Positions 954 through 40,896 of a stretch of DNA of 64,000 nucleotides are shown piece after piece. A model generated the notes under the pieces. It was given only the letters and a program-made list of their open reading frames with translations. It was not told the DNA's origin and did no database searches. Source of the DNA: Thermoanaerobaculia bacterium (GTDB taxonomy: Bacteria > Acidobacteriota > Thermoanaerobaculia > Multivoradales > Multivoraceae); contig OY761158.1 of the NCBI GenBank assembly GCA_963664405.1, positions 3,904,001 to 3,968,000 on the forward strand, read 5' to 3'. The position numbers and the translations under genes were made by a program. The first letter of the stretch is position 1; each line of letters begins with the position of its first letter.

Positions 954-1589
954 TCAGAACTCCTTCCAGTTCTTCACCGCCACGCACTGGGGAATTTCCG
1001 CCACCGGCACCACGCCGCCGGCTGCCGTGTTCACCGCGACGCGGAAGCCGAAGCTGCCGAAGCGGCAGGTGGATGGGTAGAGACCCTTCAAGCTGCTCCG
1101 GATGTTCTGCATCTCGGGGGTGTCGAAGGGGTCCACTCCGCTGGTGGTGGACCTCGTCTTCCCGGGGCAGGGACTGTCGTCATGACCCCAGCTGTAGTTG
1201 TCTGGATGGTTGCCGTCCGGCCCGGCGCGGCCGCAGGTTTCCGGGTCGATCTCCGGATCGACGTCGAACTCGAAGCCATACAAGCCGTCGAGCTTGCCGC
1301 CATCGAGGCCGTAGATCTGGAGCAGGAGGTATATCCAGGTCTCGTCCTGCCCGGCCATGGCGTAGACGACGTCGAGATCGGGCCTGAAGACGGACCCCGC
1401 CTGAAAGGGTCGCTCCCAGAAGTCGTTGAGCCAGTCATCGCAATATATCCCGGCTATCGCGGTGCCGTCGGCGAGCTTCTCGTCGACGATGTCGGGCTGG
1501 TCGCACATGCCGTCGGGCAGCTCCGGGCAGCTTTGGCTAGAGGAGTAATGGTCGCCGGTGACGCAGTCGTAGCGGATCTGGGTGATCTC
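954..1589 (-). pseudogene. Cys/Asp-rich hypothetical protein, probably a 5'-truncated fragment
   Basis: Frame stays open 27 codons upstream of ATG 1508 (EITQIRYDCVTGD...) up to a TAG inside CTAG at 1590-1593; no start or RBS. Confidence 0.35.
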
Positions 1590-1660
1590 CTAGGCGGCCG
1601 GCGTGCACTTCGGGGGCCGAGCGGTCTTGTACACTGCCGTAACCATCGGAGGAACCAGGC

Positions 1661-2722
1661 TTGAAACAATTCACCAAATCACTGGCGACGATCGCTCTTC
1701 TGGTTGTCGCCAACCCTGGCTTCGCAGCCGAGGACGACGCTATTCGGCGCACCGCAAGCGGGCGCCCCGACTTGACGGGCAACTACGACGCCGCCACGTT
1801 GACGCCGCTCTCGCGTCCGGAGAAGTATGGCGACAACCTCTATTTGAGCCGCGAGGAAGCCGCGAAGATCGAGGCGGAGGAGGCCTCGGTGATCGAGTCA
1901 CGATCCCTGGCCAGCGATCCGAATCGCGAGCCGCCGCCGGAGGGTGGCGACGGATCTTCGGGAGGCGCCGGCAACGTCGGTGGTTACAACACTTTCTGGA
2001 TCGACCGGGGGAGCGATGCCTTCGCGGTGGAGGGAAAGTTTCGTACTTCGATCCTCGTCGATCCGCCCAACGGGCGCATTCCTCCAAAGACCGAGGCGGC
2101 GGCCAAACGCGCGCAAGAGCGCCCGAGACGTCGCGCCAACGATGGCACTCCTTGGTGGCTCGAAAATGACGGCCCCGGTCCCTACGACGGTCCTGAGTCT
2201 CTAGGCATCCCCGAGCGTTGCATCGTGGGATTCACCGGCGCGACGCCAACATTCCCCAGCCTCTACAACAATTACAAGAGCATCGTGCAGACCGAGGATT
2301 CGGTGATGATCCTGATCGAGATGGTGCACGATGCTCGCGTCGTGCGGATGAACTCCGAGCACCCGCCGGCCGAGATCAGGAAGTGGCTTGGCGATTCGAT
2401 CGGCTGGTGGGAAGGCGACACCCTGGTTGTCGACACCACCAACCTCCATCCCAAGGCCGTTCTCCGTGGCGGCTCCGAGAACATGCACGTCGTCGAGCAC
2501 TTCACCAAGCTCGCGGACGGCAATGTGCTCTACCGTTTCACCCTGGAGGACGACACAGTGTGGACCGCGCCCTGGACCGGCGAGTACATATGGCGCGCGA
2601 GCGAGAACAAGGTGTACGAGTACGCTTGCCACGAGGGCAACTACTCGATGGGGAACATTCTGCGCGGGGCCCGATTGCTCGAAGCCGAGACGCTGGGAAA
2701 GGTCGGCTCGACCGGCGAGTGA
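1661..2722 (+). CDS. Exported conserved hypothetical protein (GRPDLxGxY...YEYACHEGNY family)
   Basis: GGAGG RBS, signal peptide, GDSIGWWEGDTLVVDTTN and YEYACHEGNY motifs; paralogues at ~53880-54959 and ~61300-61457. Confidence 0.8.
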   Translation: MKQFTKSLATIALLVVANPGFAAEDDAIRRTASGRPDLTGNYDAATLTPLSRPEKYGDNLYLSREEAAKIEAEEASVIESRSLASDPNREPPPEGGDGSSGGAGNVGGYNTFWIDRGSDAFAVEGKFRTSILVDPPNGRIPPKTEAAAKRAQERPRRRANDGTPWWLENDGPGPYDGPESLGIPERCIVGFTGATPTFPSLYNNYKSIVQTEDSVMILIEMVHDARVVRMNSEHPPAEIRKWLGDSIGWWEGDTLVVDTTNLHPKAVLRGGSENMHVVEHFTKLADGNVLYRFTLEDDTVWTAPWTGEYIWRASENKVYEYACHEGNYSMGNILRGARLLEAETLGKVGSTGE

Positions 2723-2890
2723 GAGATCGCCTCAGACTTCGACTTCGTCCGCTCGCGATAGCTAGGGAGCGTGTCCGAGTATTCGTCCTGAGCCGTTTCT
2801 CGGAGCGAATAGGAAGCAACGCCTGAGTGCGCCGTCCTCGGCGCCAAAAGACAACTAGGCGGAGGAAATGATAGCCATCATTTCTGGAGC

Positions 2891-3664
2891 CTAGCTCAAG
2901 AGCTTCTCGCGACGTTCCATCCGACGAAGCGCCAGAAACAAGAGCATCGCGCCTCCGCTGAGGACCGACAGCCGGTTGATCAGGATCTTTTCCAGCCACA
3001 GCGGATCGTCGCTCGTCGAGGCGATCTCGAAGGGTTTTAGAAAGAGGTCGTAGCTCGTGCCCTGTAGCGTTCCGTAGGTGATCATGACGAGGATCACGAA
3101 CCCCAATGCCAGCATGCCGGCGGCGTTGGCGCTGCGGGTGAGCACAGAGAAGAAGAAGGTCAGACTGGCGACCAGAAACGCAGGCACGAAGGCGTTGAGA
3201 CCGCCCCAGACGAACGGAAACTCGGCGAAGAAAAAGTACGAGATTGTGCTCATGGTCATGAGTGTGACGAAGAGAACCGCAACAACCGCTAGCAGCCGCA
3301 CCGACCACACCAGATAGTGCGAGCTCGCGGTGCTGAAGAGCACTTCGAGGGTGTTCGAATCACGCTCTTTCGGGACCAGATCCATGACCAGGTAGATGCC
3401 GAGAATCGTTCCAGGCAGCTCGACCAGAATGAAGAGCGCTTGCTCGACACCGAAGCCGGAGCCCGGCTGGTAGACCGCGAACGCGTAGAGAATGGCGTAG
3501 TAGGTGACGATCCCGGCGGCCATGAAGAGCAGCTTGCGCCGAAATACGACCCGGCCGGAGAGGCGAAACAGCGCCGCCAGGCTTCCCAGTAGCTGTCCCC
3601 AGCTCAGCTGCGCGGTCGGCGCTTCGGCGTCGCGCAGGCCTGTAGCCGGTTCGAGTCTGCTCAT
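2891..3664 (-). CDS. ABC-2 type membrane permease
   Basis: ~6 hydrophobic segments, KERDSNTLEVLFS loop; overlaps the upstream ATPase-containing gene by 4 bp. Confidence 0.75.
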   Translation of the reverse strand: MSRLEPATGLRDAEAPTAQLSWGQLLGSLAALFRLSGRVVFRRKLLFMAAGIVTYYAILYAFAVYQPGSGFGVEQALFILVELPGTILGIYLVMDLVPKERDSNTLEVLFSTASSHYLVWSVRLLAVVAVLFVTLMTMSTISYFFFAEFPFVWGGLNAFVPAFLVASLTFFFSVLTRSANAAGMLALGFVILVMITYGTLQGTSYDLFLKPFEIASTSDDPLWLEKILINRLSVLSGGAMLLFLALRRMERREKLLS

Positions 3665-36780: not shown

Positions 36781-36960
36781 AGGTGTGATGTCAGCGACCC
36801 CAGGCAGCCTTCGGCTGCTGCTTGGGTGCCAGCCGAAAATTTGGGGACGCGATGCGGACACCCGGCCGTCACCTGTTCGGGTGGCGCCTGGCTCGCGAAG
36901 ACGAGCCGAAGACGAGCCGGGCCTGCTAGCGGCTGTCATCTTGGACCAGTATTCGGCTAG

Positions 36961-38514
36961 GAGTCTGCGCGGCAGGAGTGCGGGTACGGTGAAGCTTCGA
37001 TCGCGCTGCAGAATGGACGCCGCATTGGGTTTCGGATGGCGGAGAGTGCGTTGAGCAAGCCTGACGAGGCGTCAGGAAGCGCGATGCGGGTCGTATAGTG
37101 AGCTCTAACTCGGTGGCATGGCCCGGAGCGGCTCATGAAGCCGCTTGGAGGACGTGGAAGCGCTTCAAGTTGACGGCCAGACACACCAGATCCCACTCGT
37201 GGCCGACATTGTCTTGGCCCCGGAGGCTGAATCGTCGGAAGCCCAGCACCTCTTTGATCCACCCGATCACCGGTTCCACGACCGCCTTGCGCCGTCGGTA
37301 GCGTTGCTTGCCGGCCTCGCTGGCGAGTTTGATCTGCATGCGGTGAGACGCTTCGAGCTGCGTACTCACTTCCCACTTCTTTCCCTCTCGACCCAAGGAG
37401 ATGTGAGCGTCAATGCTTCGCTCCTCGAGTTCGAGGAATGTCGCCTCGCTGCGATACCCCGCGTCCGCCAAGACCTGCTCGGGATCCTCCCCCAGCGCCG
37501 CCTTCGCCCGGGAGAGCAACGGCATCATCTGGTCCACGTCCGCGGCGTTGTTCGTCAGGCTCGTCGAGACGATCATCTGCGACTCTTCCTCCACCGCCAA
37601 CTGGCCGTTGTAGCACTGATCGTAGCCATGGACCGTTTTCATGATCCGACTCTGCGGATCGGTGAAGTTGTCTTGGGCCCGGTCCTCCGGAACACCGAAA
37701 TCGCGCGCGAAGGGGCGTCCGCGACGAGGCGGATCGTCGTCGTCATCCTCCGTACGGCCGCGCGCGCGGTCCTTCTCGGCCTGGCGCGCCTCGAGGCGCG
37801 CCTTCGCCTCCTGGATCTTCGCCAAGCGCTGCTCGCGCCGTTGCAGCTCGGCCGGCAGCTCATCGCCGCGCAGCTGCGCTCCATGCTCGGCATCCTCAGC
37901 CGTATCCACCGCCTCGGCCTGCGCCATCAGCGCGGCGATCTCCTCCTCCAGACGCTTCTCCTCCTCCAGCATTCGACCGTAGCTCATCGACTTGCGCTTG
38001 CTCGCGTTGGCCTTGACCTTCGTACCGTCCACCACCAACGTCCCCAGACGCAACACCCCGGCCTCACGCGCGATCTGCACCACCTGCACGAACAGTGCGT
38101 GGAAGGCCGCCAAATGAAGCTGACGAAACTCACAAATCGTGCGATGCGCCGGAGAGTTGCCCGCCGCCAGAAAACGATAGGCCACGTCCTCCTCGAGCTT
38201 GCGCGCGATGCCACGCGACGAATACGTCCCCGTCGCATACGCATACAGCAAAACCTTCACCATCATCCGAGGATCGAACGGCTGATTCCGACGACCATCC
38301 CCCTCGTAACGAGCGTAGAACGACGACAGATCCAGCGCCTCCACCGTCTCGGAGATGAAGTACACCAAGTGACCCTCCGGCAACCAGTCACGAGGGCTCG
38401 GAGCTAACAGATACAGCTGATCCGGGGCATACGGACGAAATGACGTTGGCATGCCACAACTCTACTCCGTCTTCGATCTCTTCACTAAACACTCCGTTTC
38501 TGCCGCGCAGACTC
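36961..38514 (-). mobile_element. IS1182-family insertion sequence
   Basis: 15-bp perfect terminal IR GAGTCTGCGCGGCAG; CTAG duplication at 36957-36960 and 38515-38518. Confidence 0.9.
37133..38452 (-). CDS. IS1182-family transposase
   Basis: WLPEGHLV, PRMMVKVLLYAY, DGTKVKANAS, NFTDPQSRIM, LADAGY, RKAVVEPV motifs. Confidence 0.92.
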   Translation of the reverse strand: MPTSFRPYAPDQLYLLAPSPRDWLPEGHLVYFISETVEALDLSSFYARYEGDGRRNQPFDPRMMVKVLLYAYATGTYSSRGIARKLEEDVAYRFLAAGNSPAHRTICEFRQLHLAAFHALFVQVVQIAREAGVLRLGTLVVDGTKVKANASKRKSMSYGRMLEEEKRLEEEIAALMAQAEAVDTAEDAEHGAQLRGDELPAELQRREQRLAKIQEAKARLEARQAEKDRARGRTEDDDDDPPRRGRPFARDFGVPEDRAQDNFTDPQSRIMKTVHGYDQCYNGQLAVEEESQMIVSTSLTNNAADVDQMMPLLSRAKAALGEDPEQVLADAGYRSEATFLELEERSIDAHISLGREGKKWEVSTQLEASHRMQIKLASEAGKQRYRRRKAVVEPVIGWIKEVLGFRRFSLRGQDNVGHEWDLVCLAVNLKRFHVLQAAS

Positions 38515-39030
38515 CTAGTCGCCCACAATCTCCCAGACCTCCACGGTCAGGCCGGGAGGTTCATCATCATGCGAGGGTTGGAGCATGCCCCGAACGCGAA
38601 TCTTCTGGCCGAGCTCTTCGACGCTCGCTGCCAGGTCGTCGAAGTGTTCTCCACCACTCAGGACGAGCCCCTTCGGCTCATGAGCTAGTTCGAGGACAAG
38701 GAAATCCCCATCTTGGGACACCGGCCCAACCGCTGTGACTTCGATGTCCACTGCGGTGAATCCAGCATCCCGCACTTCTTTTCGAATTCTCTCTGGGTGG
38801 AAGCCGGTGCCCACCTTTGCTACGACCACGGCGGTTGCCGATGCGAAATCAACCTCGGCACGTTCGACGCCGTCCAGGCGTCGCAGGGCCCGTTCGGCCC
38901 CTCGCGCTCAGAGGGGTCACGTCAGGCCGTCGATTCCGAGCTCCGCTCGCTCGACCTGCGCCACGGCTGCCATTGCGGCCATGAGCCACAGCAGCAGTAC
39001 CGCCGATAGGACGCGTTTCGAATTGGTCAT
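38515..39030 (-). CDS. Secreted heavy-metal-associated (HMA/MerP/CopZ-like) protein with two in-frame TGA codons; candidate UxxU selenoprotein, 171 aa
   Basis: GGGAGAGG RBS, ATG 39030, signal peptide, then IDGLT-TGA-PL-TGA-ARGAERALRRLDGVERAEVDF in frame with ORF 38515-38829. Confidence 0.75.
38865..38902 (-). promoter_or_regulatory. Two candidate bacterial SECIS hairpins
   Basis: AGGGGCC-GAAC-GGGCCCU (loop 21 nt after first UGA) and CGACGCC-UGGAC-GGCGUCG (loop 31 nt after second UGA), each with G in the first two loop positions. Confidence 0.5.
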
Positions 39031-39057
39031 TGCGCCTCTCCCTTGTCCACTGTCATT

Positions 39058-39933
39058 CTAGAAAAGCCATCGTACGCCCAAGATGGCACTGACCTTGGGC
39101 TCTGGTTGAATTCCGTTCAAGTCGACGAAGACTGGAACCGGCAGCGAAAGCTCGAGCACGAACCGTCGCGAGAGCAGCAACTCGATTCCCGGCGAAACGT
39201 ATAGGACCGTTCCTCCGGAGTCCGACAAGGTTACACCGGCGACCTCCGAGCGAGCGACGGATTCCCCGTTCAGCTCGAGCACCGCCAGCGTCATCGGCTC
39301 TCCGGGCCCTTCGCGCGGGAAGACCCGGCGCAGGTACGCAAGATCGAAGCGAAATCGATCACCGGATCGAAGGCCGTCGTCATCCTCTCCACGCCGTGTG
39401 AACTGCACGTCGGAGACGATCCAGTCTGGATCGCGAATGTGCGAGAAGACGAGTCCCGCAATCACATCGGTAGAGCCCCTGCCGAAAGTACCGCCCGTGG
39501 GCAGCTTGAGGCCGATCTCGGGCGCGAGGCGCGTCGAACCCGCCCGTACGTTCCGACGCAGCACGTCGTAGCGGGCGAAGATCGTGCTGTCCGCCGTGCC
39601 GCTGCTGACTGTTCGCGCGCCTGAACCGTCCGGGTCGTTCCGCTCTAGCCGCACCAGCGGTGTCACCAGACTGAGACTGAGGTGAGGGCGCGCTCCCCAC
39701 ACAACAGCGTTGATACTGCGCCATCGCTCGAGGTGTTCATCCGGGCGCGGCTCTTCGAAAGCGTCGTACCGGACCAGCGATCGTACGAGAACTCCCCGGT
39801 TGAAGAGAGTGCGCCCCGAGGGCGCCACGATTTGCGCGCTCGCGAGCGCAGCGGGCGCGAGAACCAGGGCGGTCCCTACGGTGCACTTCAGCCACATGAC
39901 CGATGAACCTACGTACCGATCACGGTTTGTCAT
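39058..39933 (-). CDS. Putative outer-membrane beta-barrel transporter (MetA/phenol-degradation-like); start 39933 or 39897
   Basis: Signal peptide, GLKLPTG, SGGTVLYVSPG, terminal aromatic GVRWLF. Confidence 0.65.
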   Translation of the reverse strand: MTNRDRYVGSSVMWLKCTVGTALVLAPAALASAQIVAPSGRTLFNRGVLVRSLVRYDAFEEPRPDEHLERWRSINAVVWGARPHLSLSLVTPLVRLERNDPDGSGARTVSSGTADSTIFARYDVLRRNVRAGSTRLAPEIGLKLPTGGTFGRGSTDVIAGLVFSHIRDPDWIVSDVQFTRRGEDDDGLRSGDRFRFDLAYLRRVFPREGPGEPMTLAVLELNGESVARSEVAGVTLSDSGGTVLYVSPGIELLLSRRFVLELSLPVPVFVDLNGIQPEPKVSAILGVRWLF

Positions 39934-40342
39934 GGCCACAGGATTGTGTGCCGTCGAGTGCGGCCAGAATCGCGCACTGCGACACGGGAGCCTCGCCATT
40001 ACATTTGGCGGTCAGTCGCTCTAGAAGACGGCGCATTTCCCTGAGCTCTACCAACCGGAGGTCGATCTCTGCGATGCGTGCCTCGGCGACAGCTTTCACC
40101 GAGCCGGCGTTCTGTCTGGAAGCGCGCAGCTCGAGAAGCTCCTTGATCTCGCTAAGCGAGAATCCGACTGCTTTCGCCCGGCGGATGAATCGCAGGCGCG
40201 ACACCGCTTCGGGGGGATACTGACGGTAGCCGGAGGAACTGCGAGGGGGCTCATCCAAGAGGCCCGTCTTTTCATAAAAACGCACGGTTTCCACACCGAC
40301 GTCTCCGGCGCGTGCGAGCTTGCCTATTGTGAGTCGCTGCAT
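39920..40342 (-). CDS. MerR-family metal-responsive regulator
   Basis: TIGKLA..VGVETVRFYE, GYRQY, FIRRAKAVGFSLSEI, C-x8-C metal loop; GGAGG RBS. Confidence 0.92.
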   Translation of the reverse strand: MQRLTIGKLARAGDVGVETVRFYEKTGLLDEPPRSSSGYRQYPPEAVSRLRFIRRAKAVGFSLSEIKELLELRASRQNAGSVKAVAEARIAEIDLRLVELREMRRLLERLTAKCNGEAPVSQCAILAALDGTQSCGHDKP

Positions 40343-40359
40343 CGACACCTCCAGATGAG

Positions 40360-40391
40360 AGCCTAAACCCTGGAGACAGGTACGGAGTCAA
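40360..40391 (-). promoter_or_regulatory. MerR-type promoter/operator with long spacer
   Basis: TTGACT-20 bp-TAGGCT with imperfect dyad ACTCCGTA/TCCAGGGT, resembling merT/zntA promoters. Confidence 0.75.
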
Positions 40392-40487
40392 ATGATGCGA
40401 CTCACAGAAACCGGCCCGGTCAACGCGACTCGCTGTCTGATTGCCGAACACTTCGTCATTGACACGCCGTTAAGTTTTTTGTTTTGT

Positions 40488-40536
40488 TGGTGGAGCCGAA
40501 GGGAATCGAACCCTCGACCTCTTGAATGCCATTCAA
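40488..40536 (-). other. 3' fragment of tRNA-Ala(GGC); att site of an integrated element
   Basis: TTGAATGGCATTCAAGAGGTCGAGGGTTCGATTCCCTTCGGCTCCACCA: anticodon arm, T-arm and CCA present; 5' acceptor strand and D-arm absent. Confidence 0.85.
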
Positions 40537-40776
40537 CCATGGGGGCGTTTGGCTGAGTTCTACGAGTGAGGCTCAGTTGCTCTGAGTCAGTAAGTACAGG
40601 GACTTACGGCTGCGTGCTCCTCGGATGAGCCAGTCGGAGTTGAGGCAGTTTGGCTGAGTTGATGAGCAGGAGGTGAGCAGCTCGTCGGGTAGGGGACCAG
40701 CGACGGCTTCAGATCGGTGCCATCCTGGAGCGGGCTCCCGCAGAGGTCGAAACGACGCCGGTGCTGAGAGGTCAGG

Positions 40777-40896
40777 TGTCGCACCTTCGCACATATTGCG
40801 ACAAACTGTCGTCTTTCGCCCCTGGGCCAACACGACAGTCCAACGTCTACGGGCCTTTCCGAGCATCGGTGGCGTCTTATGTGGTGGACTACGACA
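40777..40896 (+). repeat. Palindrome element A (three TGTCG...CGACA sites)
   Basis: Sites 40777-40803 (N17), 40807-40837 (N21), 40870-40896 (N17, TGGCG variant, GGTG core). Confidence 0.8.

Follow-up and report, generated by a model that had tools for sequence, protein, structure and literature searches.

A 64,000-nucleotide stretch of the genome of a Thermoanaerobaculia bacterium, C1:3904001-3968000 of a 6.78-Mb single-contig assembly (G000), here called the window and numbered from its first letter, carries a minus-strand gene for a protein with an HMA domain followed by an OB-fold domain, in which two TGA codons lie in frame at the metal-binding loop. Judged by its sequence and by those of its relatives, the locus is very probably a real gene in which both metal-holding cysteines are replaced by selenocysteine (Sec, U). 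The evidence for this HMA-OB gene comprises an open frame, TGA/Cys alternation among relatives, hairpin covariation specific to TGA forms, the Sec machinery of the genome, predicted folds and conserved neighbours. We consider it quite probable that the proposal as a whole is correct, namely that an exported HMA(UxxU)-OB protein would receive Sec at both UGAs by way of mRNA hairpins, hold a soft metal as a diselenolate and work together with a neighbouring channel. The fold and the neighbouring genes suggest the role of a soft-metal chaperone.

The frame runs on the minus strand through the codons GGC CTG ACG TGA CCC CTC TGA GCG; with TGA translated as U the product has 171 open residues, begins MTNSKRVLSAVLLLWLMAAMAAVAQVERAELGIDGLTUPLUARGAERAL and has the metal loop GLT-U-PL-U (features in Table 1). 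An earlier sequence-only reading of this DNA had given the ribosome-binding site, the ATG, the frame and the TGA coordinates, all of which are correct on direct reading, and had placed both TGAs exactly at the Cys positions of the GMxCxxC motif, in agreement with the Pfam HMA alignment (residues 33-91). It had also supposed that callers of open reading frames (ORFs) would miss the gene. A plain ORF listing indeed yields at this locus a 104-codon tail from GTG 38829 alone; the databases hold the window protein only as that 104-aa tail (P0002), and one relative as a 138-aa piece (P0003) starting just past the second TGA. Such remnants are the usual signature of a missed selenoprotein. A word-based protein database search, which is weak for the HMA-OB family, returned four matches, and an exhaustive profile search was used in its place.

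When 401 genomes belonging to the same phylum were scanned in six frames with the window protein (U read as C), matches came from 211 of them, mostly generic HMA domains; among the 150 matches listed, 22 had two TGAs and 14 had one. Two of the 401, G024 and G049, are unpublished genomes that enter into no other result. We read 31 loci (L022-L052) in the matching frame. Fifteen have TGA at both positions, namely the window gene together with a fragmentary paralogue from its own genome, and genes from 13 other genomes, while two have TGA then TGC, 13 have Cys at both positions and one is without any Cys. Seven of the Cys/Cys loci have a signal peptide, an HMA domain and a C-terminal domain, three encode short HMA proteins and three are long, P-type ATPases among them. 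The C/U alternation for which the sequence-only reading had proposed to search homologues is therefore present, at exactly the two TGA positions. Since identity to the window protein is only 25-44% in the family alignment, the TGAs have been kept over a long divergence. Proteins of the HMA-OB family are 164-188 aa long.

At E <= 1e-30 the exhaustive profile search of 1.84 billion representatives gave 405 matches, mostly to proteins with multiple HMA domains. The best 150 of the 405 include about 25 single-stretch full-length proteins of 166-194 aa, so that the HMA-OB family is widespread in Cys form; the 11 of these that were read are all CxxC. Cys forms of about 250 aa (P0030, P0041) bear a second HMA domain C-terminal to the OB domain, giving an HMA-OB-HMA layout. 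In a quick maximum-likelihood tree of 32 members all 12 UxxU sequences fall into one group of 13 (SH-aLRT 90) that also holds one long-branch Cys form, and two UxxC forms lie in a separate, well-supported clade with Cys forms. This fits one origin of the UxxU forms and a separate origin of the UxxC forms, in a tree built with the hairpin-encoded columns in place, which may contribute to the grouping of the UxxU sequences.

Contigs of four public runs from four studies (X1, X4, X7 and X8), one of which may be the source of the assembly, were compared over 38300-40400. Those of X1 and X4 show no differences over 38489-38923 and 38895-40400. The X7 and X8 contig comes from a different strain, about 98% identical over 38515-40400, with 41 differences; none of the 36 of these that were listed falls at 38908-38910 or 38917-38919. 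TGC or TGT in place of TGA, which the earlier reading had named as a refuting result if seen in reads, was thus not found in these contigs: X1 and X4 keep both TGAs, as do X7 and X8 among the differences listed. The X7 and X8 contigs join 36929-36956 directly to 38515, so that the IS1182-family insertion that borders the gene in the window is strain-specific.

These data bear on the simplest alternative, that the locus is a decaying pseudogene, or that only the 104-codon ORF encoding the OB tail is real and the TGAs are true stops. Gene callers do report this tail only, the IS1182 copy lies directly beside the gene, and a truncated paralogous fragment (L023) occurs elsewhere in the genome. We nevertheless find this explanation scarcely credible. 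A chance double nonsense, already thought unlikely in the sequence-only reading, is ruled out by TGA/TGA recurring in register at 15 of the 31 loci, and the 13 other genomes keep both TGAs, the signal peptide and the N-terminal half of the HMA fold in frame at the low identities given above. The IS1182 copy duplicated CTAG, at 36957-60 and 38514-17, and because the right-hand CTAG contains the TAG stop the HMA-OB gene is intact; the same gene is found in strains lacking the insertion. In the structural model the tail begins inside β-strand 3 of the HMA fold, and would not be expected to fold as a domain. The hairpin covariation described below is, in addition, confined to TGA forms.

The paralogous fragment (G000:C1:3336459-3336593, plus strand) is a 135-nt copy of part of the HMA-OB gene with 77% nucleotide and 73% protein identity, which keeps both TGAs and both hairpins and is without signal peptide and OB domain. 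In the same frame just upstream stands ...LAKTCGCG..., resembling the SelD N-terminal motif, and from its sequence the fragment looks like a recombination remnant. The genome also holds a second UxxU gene (L055, G000:C1:6057394-6057570, minus strand), with an HMA-like loop ...GATUMGU... behind a hydrophobic segment; its HMA(UxxU) part is fused to a thioredoxin-like WCAPC domain, and downstream of the TGAs lies a hairpin with the loop UGGAA. A third HMA selenoprotein candidate (L053, G000:C1:3325724-3325912, plus strand) is a 113-aa secreted MerP-like protein with GMIUGGC (UxxC). At one related locus (L025, G399:C3, about 1500-3216, plus strand) the HMA-OB frame continues stop-free into an ORF of about 525 codons with a weak BNR_2 match, which could be a fusion or, the DNA being GC-rich, an open frame that merely overlaps; 2.4 kb upstream is an HMA gene with one TGA.

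Two hairpins, H1 and H2, follow the TGAs in all 15 TGA forms. In a codon-registered 87-nt alignment of these forms, with pairing counted per cell over 14 pairs, 88.6% of cells are paired (H1 80.0%, H2 97.1%), and changes on both sides are seen in 7 of the 14 pairs (five of the seven in H1, and two pairs in H2). None of 500 shuffles reaches these values, and sliding the partners by 1-3 columns gives 32-47%. The same columns in ten Cys forms are 45.7% paired (H2 34.3%), like the slid controls, and RNAalifold independently recovers both hairpins. The GG of the H2 loop and several third-codon positions within H2 are invariant despite differing residues (R-L-D-G-V in most, R-Q-A-G-V in L043 and L044), and third-codon identity inside versus outside the hairpins is 0.71 versus 0.55 in TGA forms and 0.60 versus 0.58 in Cys forms. 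Short contigs of other organisms in the public runs match 38865-38901 only, which is exactly H1 plus H2, and run on into sequence that again reads TGA-N6-TGA.

The legend to Fig. 2 of PMC13188914 describes a bacterial selenocysteine insertion sequence (SECIS) by a loop of 3-9 nt, a stem of 4-16 bp, G in the first two loop positions, a UGA-to-loop distance of 16-37 nt and a minimum free energy of at most -7.5 kcal/mol. H2 taken with UGA2 and H1 taken with UGA1 both lie within these limits (Table 1). As H2 is too far from UGA1 and H1 too near to UGA2, each UGA has exactly one hairpin in the published range of distances. The loop G and the energy are as described in 15 of 15 sequences for H2 and in 10 of 15 for H1. 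A bacterial SECIS search had been suggested by the sequence-only reading, and by covariation, RNAalifold and these per-sequence counts a SECIS-like structure is present and specific to TGA forms. H2 is the best SECIS candidate, and H1 may serve the first UGA. The window sequence on its own is unremarkable (-29.8 kcal/mol, z = -2.0 against shuffles), and the argument from RNA structure is a comparative one. Rfam models gave no match over the whole window at gathering scores, and at E <= 10 over 38400-40800 a tRNA-like fragment alone, with no SECIS family.

All components required for Sec insertion, for which the sequence-only reading had recommended a search, were found in the genome above their curated cut-offs: tRNA-Sec (72.4 bits on Rfam RF01852; typed by ARAGORN as tRNA-SeC, anticodon tca), selA (423.1 bits, cut-off 267.9), selB (339.8 bits, cut-off 242.25) and selD (362 bits). 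In the TGA-bearing one of the two selD genes the TGA stands at a ...KTCGU... site, and 11 nt downstream lies the hairpin GAGCCC-GGUC-GGGCUC, which with its GGUC loop is a textbook bacterial SECIS. Whole-genome ARAGORN listed 48 tRNAs. Among these an 82-nt 'tRNA-Pyl(cta)' (G000:C1:3207503-3207584, minus strand) has a poor cloverleaf with mismatches, and with no PylS over cut-off it is probably a false positive.

This inventory also bears on how the UGAs are read. Passages of PMC13582414 warn that either UGA of a UXXU motif may be Cys in genomes with tRNA-ReC, which are enriched among UXXU carriers, and one or both UGAs of the HMA-OB gene might accordingly be decoded as Cys, by a SelB-dependent tRNA of the ReC type or by a near-cognate one, to give a CxxC or UxxC product. 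The genome's single tRNA with a UCA anticodon is typed SeC, however, its one tRNA-Cys is an ordinary 75-nt tRNA-Cys(GCA), tRNA-Sec scores well on its Rfam model, and selA is present together with a selD that itself contains Sec. We therefore regard decoding as Cys as very unlikely.

The sequence-only reading had described a signal peptide, an HMA fold and an extra C-terminal domain. An n-h-c pattern with an A-x-A/Q site is common to the family in the alignment, which supports the signal peptide and would imply export by the Sec pathway. The other two domains are both real. The HMA domain passes the gathering threshold of PF00403 (E 5.6e-10, 39.9 bits, cut-off 24.8), and AlphaFold2, run on a 20-sequence family alignment (mean pLDDT 92.7), gives an N-terminal helix (residues 3-20), a beta-alpha-beta-beta-alpha-beta HMA fold and, at about residues 92-168, a barrel of five strands with one helix. 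In a Foldseek search of the PDB the HMA part resembles the domains of HMA7, MerP, CopZ and ATP7B (TMt about 0.8-0.89), and the second domain the OB folds of Stn1/Ten1, the N-domains of Asp- and Lys-tRNA synthetases, OBody and Rim1. No model in the Pfam and NCBIfam scans covers this second domain.

The HMA-OB gene is the last of three co-directional genes, following those for a MerR-type regulator and a predicted outer-membrane barrel. The regulator scores 124 bits as ZntR, 119.7 as MerR, 110 as CueR and 105 as CadR/PbrR, all under the cut-offs. The model of the barrel (279 aa, pLDDT 80) matches the FapF channel and the COG4313 channel 4rl8 with TM 0.72/0.75. A barrel gene adjoins HMA-OB in the window and in L028, L026, L034, L051, L030, L031, L035, L033, L043, L047 and, weakly, L044; the barrels of the first eight of these loci, and weakly that of L044, are homologous to the window barrel (phmmer E 4.6e-77 to 1e-7). 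Matches to PF13557 (Phenol_MetA_deg) were found in 6 of the 17 neighbour ORFs scanned and in the L047 barrel; several homologues of the window barrel and the barrel of L043 are among the matching genes. An NHL-repeat propeller adjoins HMA-OB in L024, L025, L026, L027, L029, L032 and L047, the full order barrel - HMA-OB - NHL being seen in L026 and L047. Sec and Cys forms share these barrel and NHL partners.

Table 1. Positions of the HMA-OB gene, its elements and associated features (window numbering unless a contig is named).
Feature	Position	Strand	Details and basis
Candidate selenoprotein gene	38515..39030	(-)	171 codons + TAG stop 38515-38517; signal peptide + HMA(UxxU) + OB-fold
Ribosome-binding site AAGGGAGAGG	39035..39044	(-)	4 nt ahead of ATG; direct reading
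Start ATG	39030-39028	(-)	Direct reading
First in-frame TGA, U38 (UGA1)	38917..38919	(-)	First Cys position of GMxCxxC; invariant alignment columns 13-15
Second in-frame TGA, U41 (UGA2)	38908..38910	(-)	Second Cys position of GMxCxxC; invariant alignment columns 22-24
Putative signal peptide, residues 1-24 (MTNSKRVLSAVLLLWLMAAMAAVA / QVE)	38959..39030	(-)	Sequence; helix 3-20 in model; pattern in relatives
HMA domain, residues 33-91	38758..38934	(-)	Pfam PF00403, Foldseek
Predicted OB-fold domain, residues ~92-168	38527..38757	(-)	AlphaFold2 model, Foldseek; Pfam family none
Hairpin H1	38885..38901	(-)	GGGGCC-GAACG-GGCCCU; 6 bp, loop GAACG, -12.1 kcal/mol; loop start 21 nt past UGA1, 12 nt past UGA2
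Hairpin H2	38865..38883	(-)	CGACGCC-UGGAC-GGCGUCG; 7 bp, loop UGGAC, -11.8 kcal/mol; loop start 31 nt past UGA2, 40 nt past UGA1
Predicted beta-barrel gene, FapF/COG4313 (Phenol_MetA_deg-like) type	39058..39897	(-)	Probable start M35 of 313-aa ORF; ends ...GVRWLF
MerR-family metal-type regulator	39920..40348	(-)	First gene of apparent merR-omp-hma unit
IS1182-family element	36957-38517		Transposase 37133-38452, 363.6 bits; perfect 19-bp terminal inverted repeats
Two selD genes	G000:C1:388007-388930 and C1:565727-566650	(+) and (-)	One with in-frame TGA, the other without

Upstream of merR, at 40361-40392 on the minus strand, TTGACT and TAGGCT are separated by 20 nt that contain an imperfect dyad, ACCTG..CAGGG; a spacer of this length presumably resembles those of MerR-family promoters. 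A scan of 38300-40700 for sigma-70 promoters with spacers of 16-18 nt gave no sites. Just upstream of the three genes (40488-40538, minus strand) is a 51-nt tRNA-like 3' fragment, T-arm plus acceptor, scoring 23.6 bits on the Rfam tmRNA model. It is a fragment only, the complete tmRNA lying 570 kb away (C1:3373906-3374259), and may be the remnant of an integration site. Composition gave no indication of horizontal transfer, GC being 0.58-0.68 over 30-48 kb and the cassette showing no anomaly.

A different function for recoded UGAs must be weighed here, in which the UxxU pair would form a redox centre cycling between diselenide and diselenol, for example as a reductase in the envelope acting on a metal, on a metalloid or on a partner protein. 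Genes for an AhpC/TSA redoxin (TlpA-like) stand ahead of the barrel-HMA pair in L043 and L044, the HMA(UxxU) protein L055 of the same genome is itself fused to a thioredoxin-like domain, and most bacterial selenoproteins are redox proteins, according to passages of PMC1976440. The HMA fold with its GMxCxxC loop is, however, a classic soft-metal site, a MerR-type metal regulator is adjacent, and family members of the Cys form retain CPFC/CxxC, as metallochaperones do. We consider a redox centre unlikely for these reasons, although redox and metal-carrier roles are compatible and do not exclude each other.

Several observations weigh against our interpretation that the HMA-OB gene encodes an exported metal carrier with two Sec residues. 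As regards the RNA, the distance from UGA1 to the H2 loop exceeds the published 16-37 nt, and H1 misses the loop G or the energy in 5 of 15 sequences. An alternative single long hairpin, formed by pairing of the UGA-bearing strand with that of H2 and with H1 at its apex, is paired in 78.4% of cells, its lower stem being almost without compensatory change. As regards the machinery, selA is over its cut-off in 13 of 15 TGA-form genomes and in 8 of 9 Cys-form genomes, and being equally common in the latter its co-occurrence does not discriminate; the two TGA-form genomes with selA below cut-off (G081 and G318) both have tRNA-Sec and selB. None of the public runs listed as carrying the locus is an RNA run. 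The IS1182 copy directly adjoins the HMA-OB stop codon, and could influence the 3' end of the mRNA. As regards function, no MerR domain was found at the 14 other TGA-form loci within about 1.5 kb on each side, the regulator adjoining the cassette in the window genome alone, and the window barrel has no Pfam match at E <= 0.01. A UxxU pair would also readily close to a diselenide in the oxidising envelope, which would argue for a redox role or the need for a reductant.

With these points in mind, the mechanism that we propose for the HMA-OB gene is as follows. The genome's own SelA, SelB, SelC and SelD would read both UGAs as selenocysteine, with insertion directed by the conserved mRNA hairpins just downstream: H2 would serve as a canonical bacterial SECIS for UGA2, and H1 is placed so that it could act for UGA1. 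With the ribosome on UGA1 both hairpins could stand, while on UGA2 H1 would be melted and H2 remain. The mature protein would hold a soft metal ion, Cu(I), Hg(II), Ag(I) or Cd(II), between its two selenolates in the cell envelope and would work with the adjacent FapF/COG4313-like outer-membrane channel, the MerR-type regulator two genes upstream probably controlling the gene in this genome. A more elaborate scheme, which we put forward tentatively and with far more doubt than confidence, would combine a relay for UGAs 9 nt apart with a new envelope module. In the relay, the H2 strand could pair with the UGA strand before translation, H1 would then present SelB at UGA1 and melt, and H2 would serve UGA2; the module, of HMA-OB and a FapF/COG4313-like channel with or without the NHL protein, would transport soft metal across the outer membrane, or out of it, by way of the diselenolate site.

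Because standard gene callers cut such genes in two, a presumably exported, putatively metal-handling family is missing from annotations. The TGA and Cys forms offer a natural test bed for the decoding of two UGAs three codons apart, where two covarying hairpins can be set against the single SECIS proposed for UXXU hydrogenases, and likewise for the advantage that a diselenolate may have over a dithiolate in holding soft metals in the envelope. The association of HMA-OB with a FapF/COG4313-type channel and an NHL propeller is conserved, and points towards an envelope metal system that has not been described.

Of the two parts of the sequence-only claim that this is a rare UxxU motif in an HMA metal loop, the presence of the motif holds, while its novelty does not, as UxxU in an HMA fold is already known. 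Passages of two reviews (PMC9312934 and PMC13188914) list an HMA-type UxxU "metal-binding protein", together with Sec forms of MerT-like proteins and P-type ATPases, and credit the UxxU family to Zhang & Gladyshev 2007 (PMC1976440), whose main text contains neither 'mercuric reductase' nor 'UxxU', so that the attribution may rest on its supplements. NCBIfam has entries of this kind in NF041115, 'UxxU_metal_bind' metal-binding (seleno)protein, and NF045683, a MerT/CopZ-fusion selenoprotein. NF041115, itself predicted from sequence only, resembles the window protein in having an HMA-type fold and UGA codons for both metal-site cysteines. The window protein, however, reaches 40.7 bits where the cut-off is 95 and aligns to profile positions 1-49 of 74 only, its 13 TGA-form relatives score 32.3-47.8 bits, none over 95, and none of the 401 genomes has a match over the cut-off, in a six-frame reading of the TGAs that may lower scores. 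The window family differs further in having a signal peptide and an OB-fold domain, and in the conservation of its neighbours, an outer-membrane channel or an NHL protein. In its manner of working the window protein would nevertheless be like the catalogued UxxU selenoproteins of HMA type.

MerP, the periplasmic Hg(II)-binding protein of mer operons (TIGR02052; PDB 1osd, 1afi), is likewise an exported HMA protein with a GMxCxxC loop (TMt 0.77-0.82), and a MerR-family regulator lies near the window gene too. In contrast to MerP, which is a single HMA domain, the window protein has Sec for Cys and an extra OB domain; it scores 34.9 bits against a cut-off of 92.55, and neither merT nor merA is among the adjacent window genes examined. 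CopZ (NF047957, NF033794, NF033795; PDB 6ff2, 2qif) shares fold and loop, and NF047957 gives the best NCBIfam score, but the three scores of 44.8, 29.4 and 26.8 bits stay below the cut-offs of 85, 95 and 91, and CopZ is cytoplasmic and single-domain whereas the window protein adds to the HMA domain both a signal peptide and an OB fold.

The closest parallel in decoding is provided by the large subunits of UXXU Group 4 [NiFeSe] hydrogenases, which are described in passages of PMC13582414 as having two UGAs at a spacing of three codons and, downstream of them, a SECIS-like stem-loop in which a G is conserved within the first two positions of the loop. These proteins are unrelated to the window protein, and their authors suggest one downstream SECIS for both UGAs, in contrast to the two covarying hairpins of the window gene. 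The barrel, for its part, resembles the FapF amyloid-secretion channel and the COG4313 channel (PDB 5o65/5o67, 4rl8; PF13557) at a TM of about 0.7 for the 279-aa model; it differs in lacking a Pfam match, and the titles of those entries name neither metals nor HMA proteins. Full-text literature searches returned nothing on a two-domain HMA-OB selenoprotein family. Taken with the comparisons above, the sequences place the window protein in a separate family with its own two-domain architecture, within a class of proteins known from sequence analysis.

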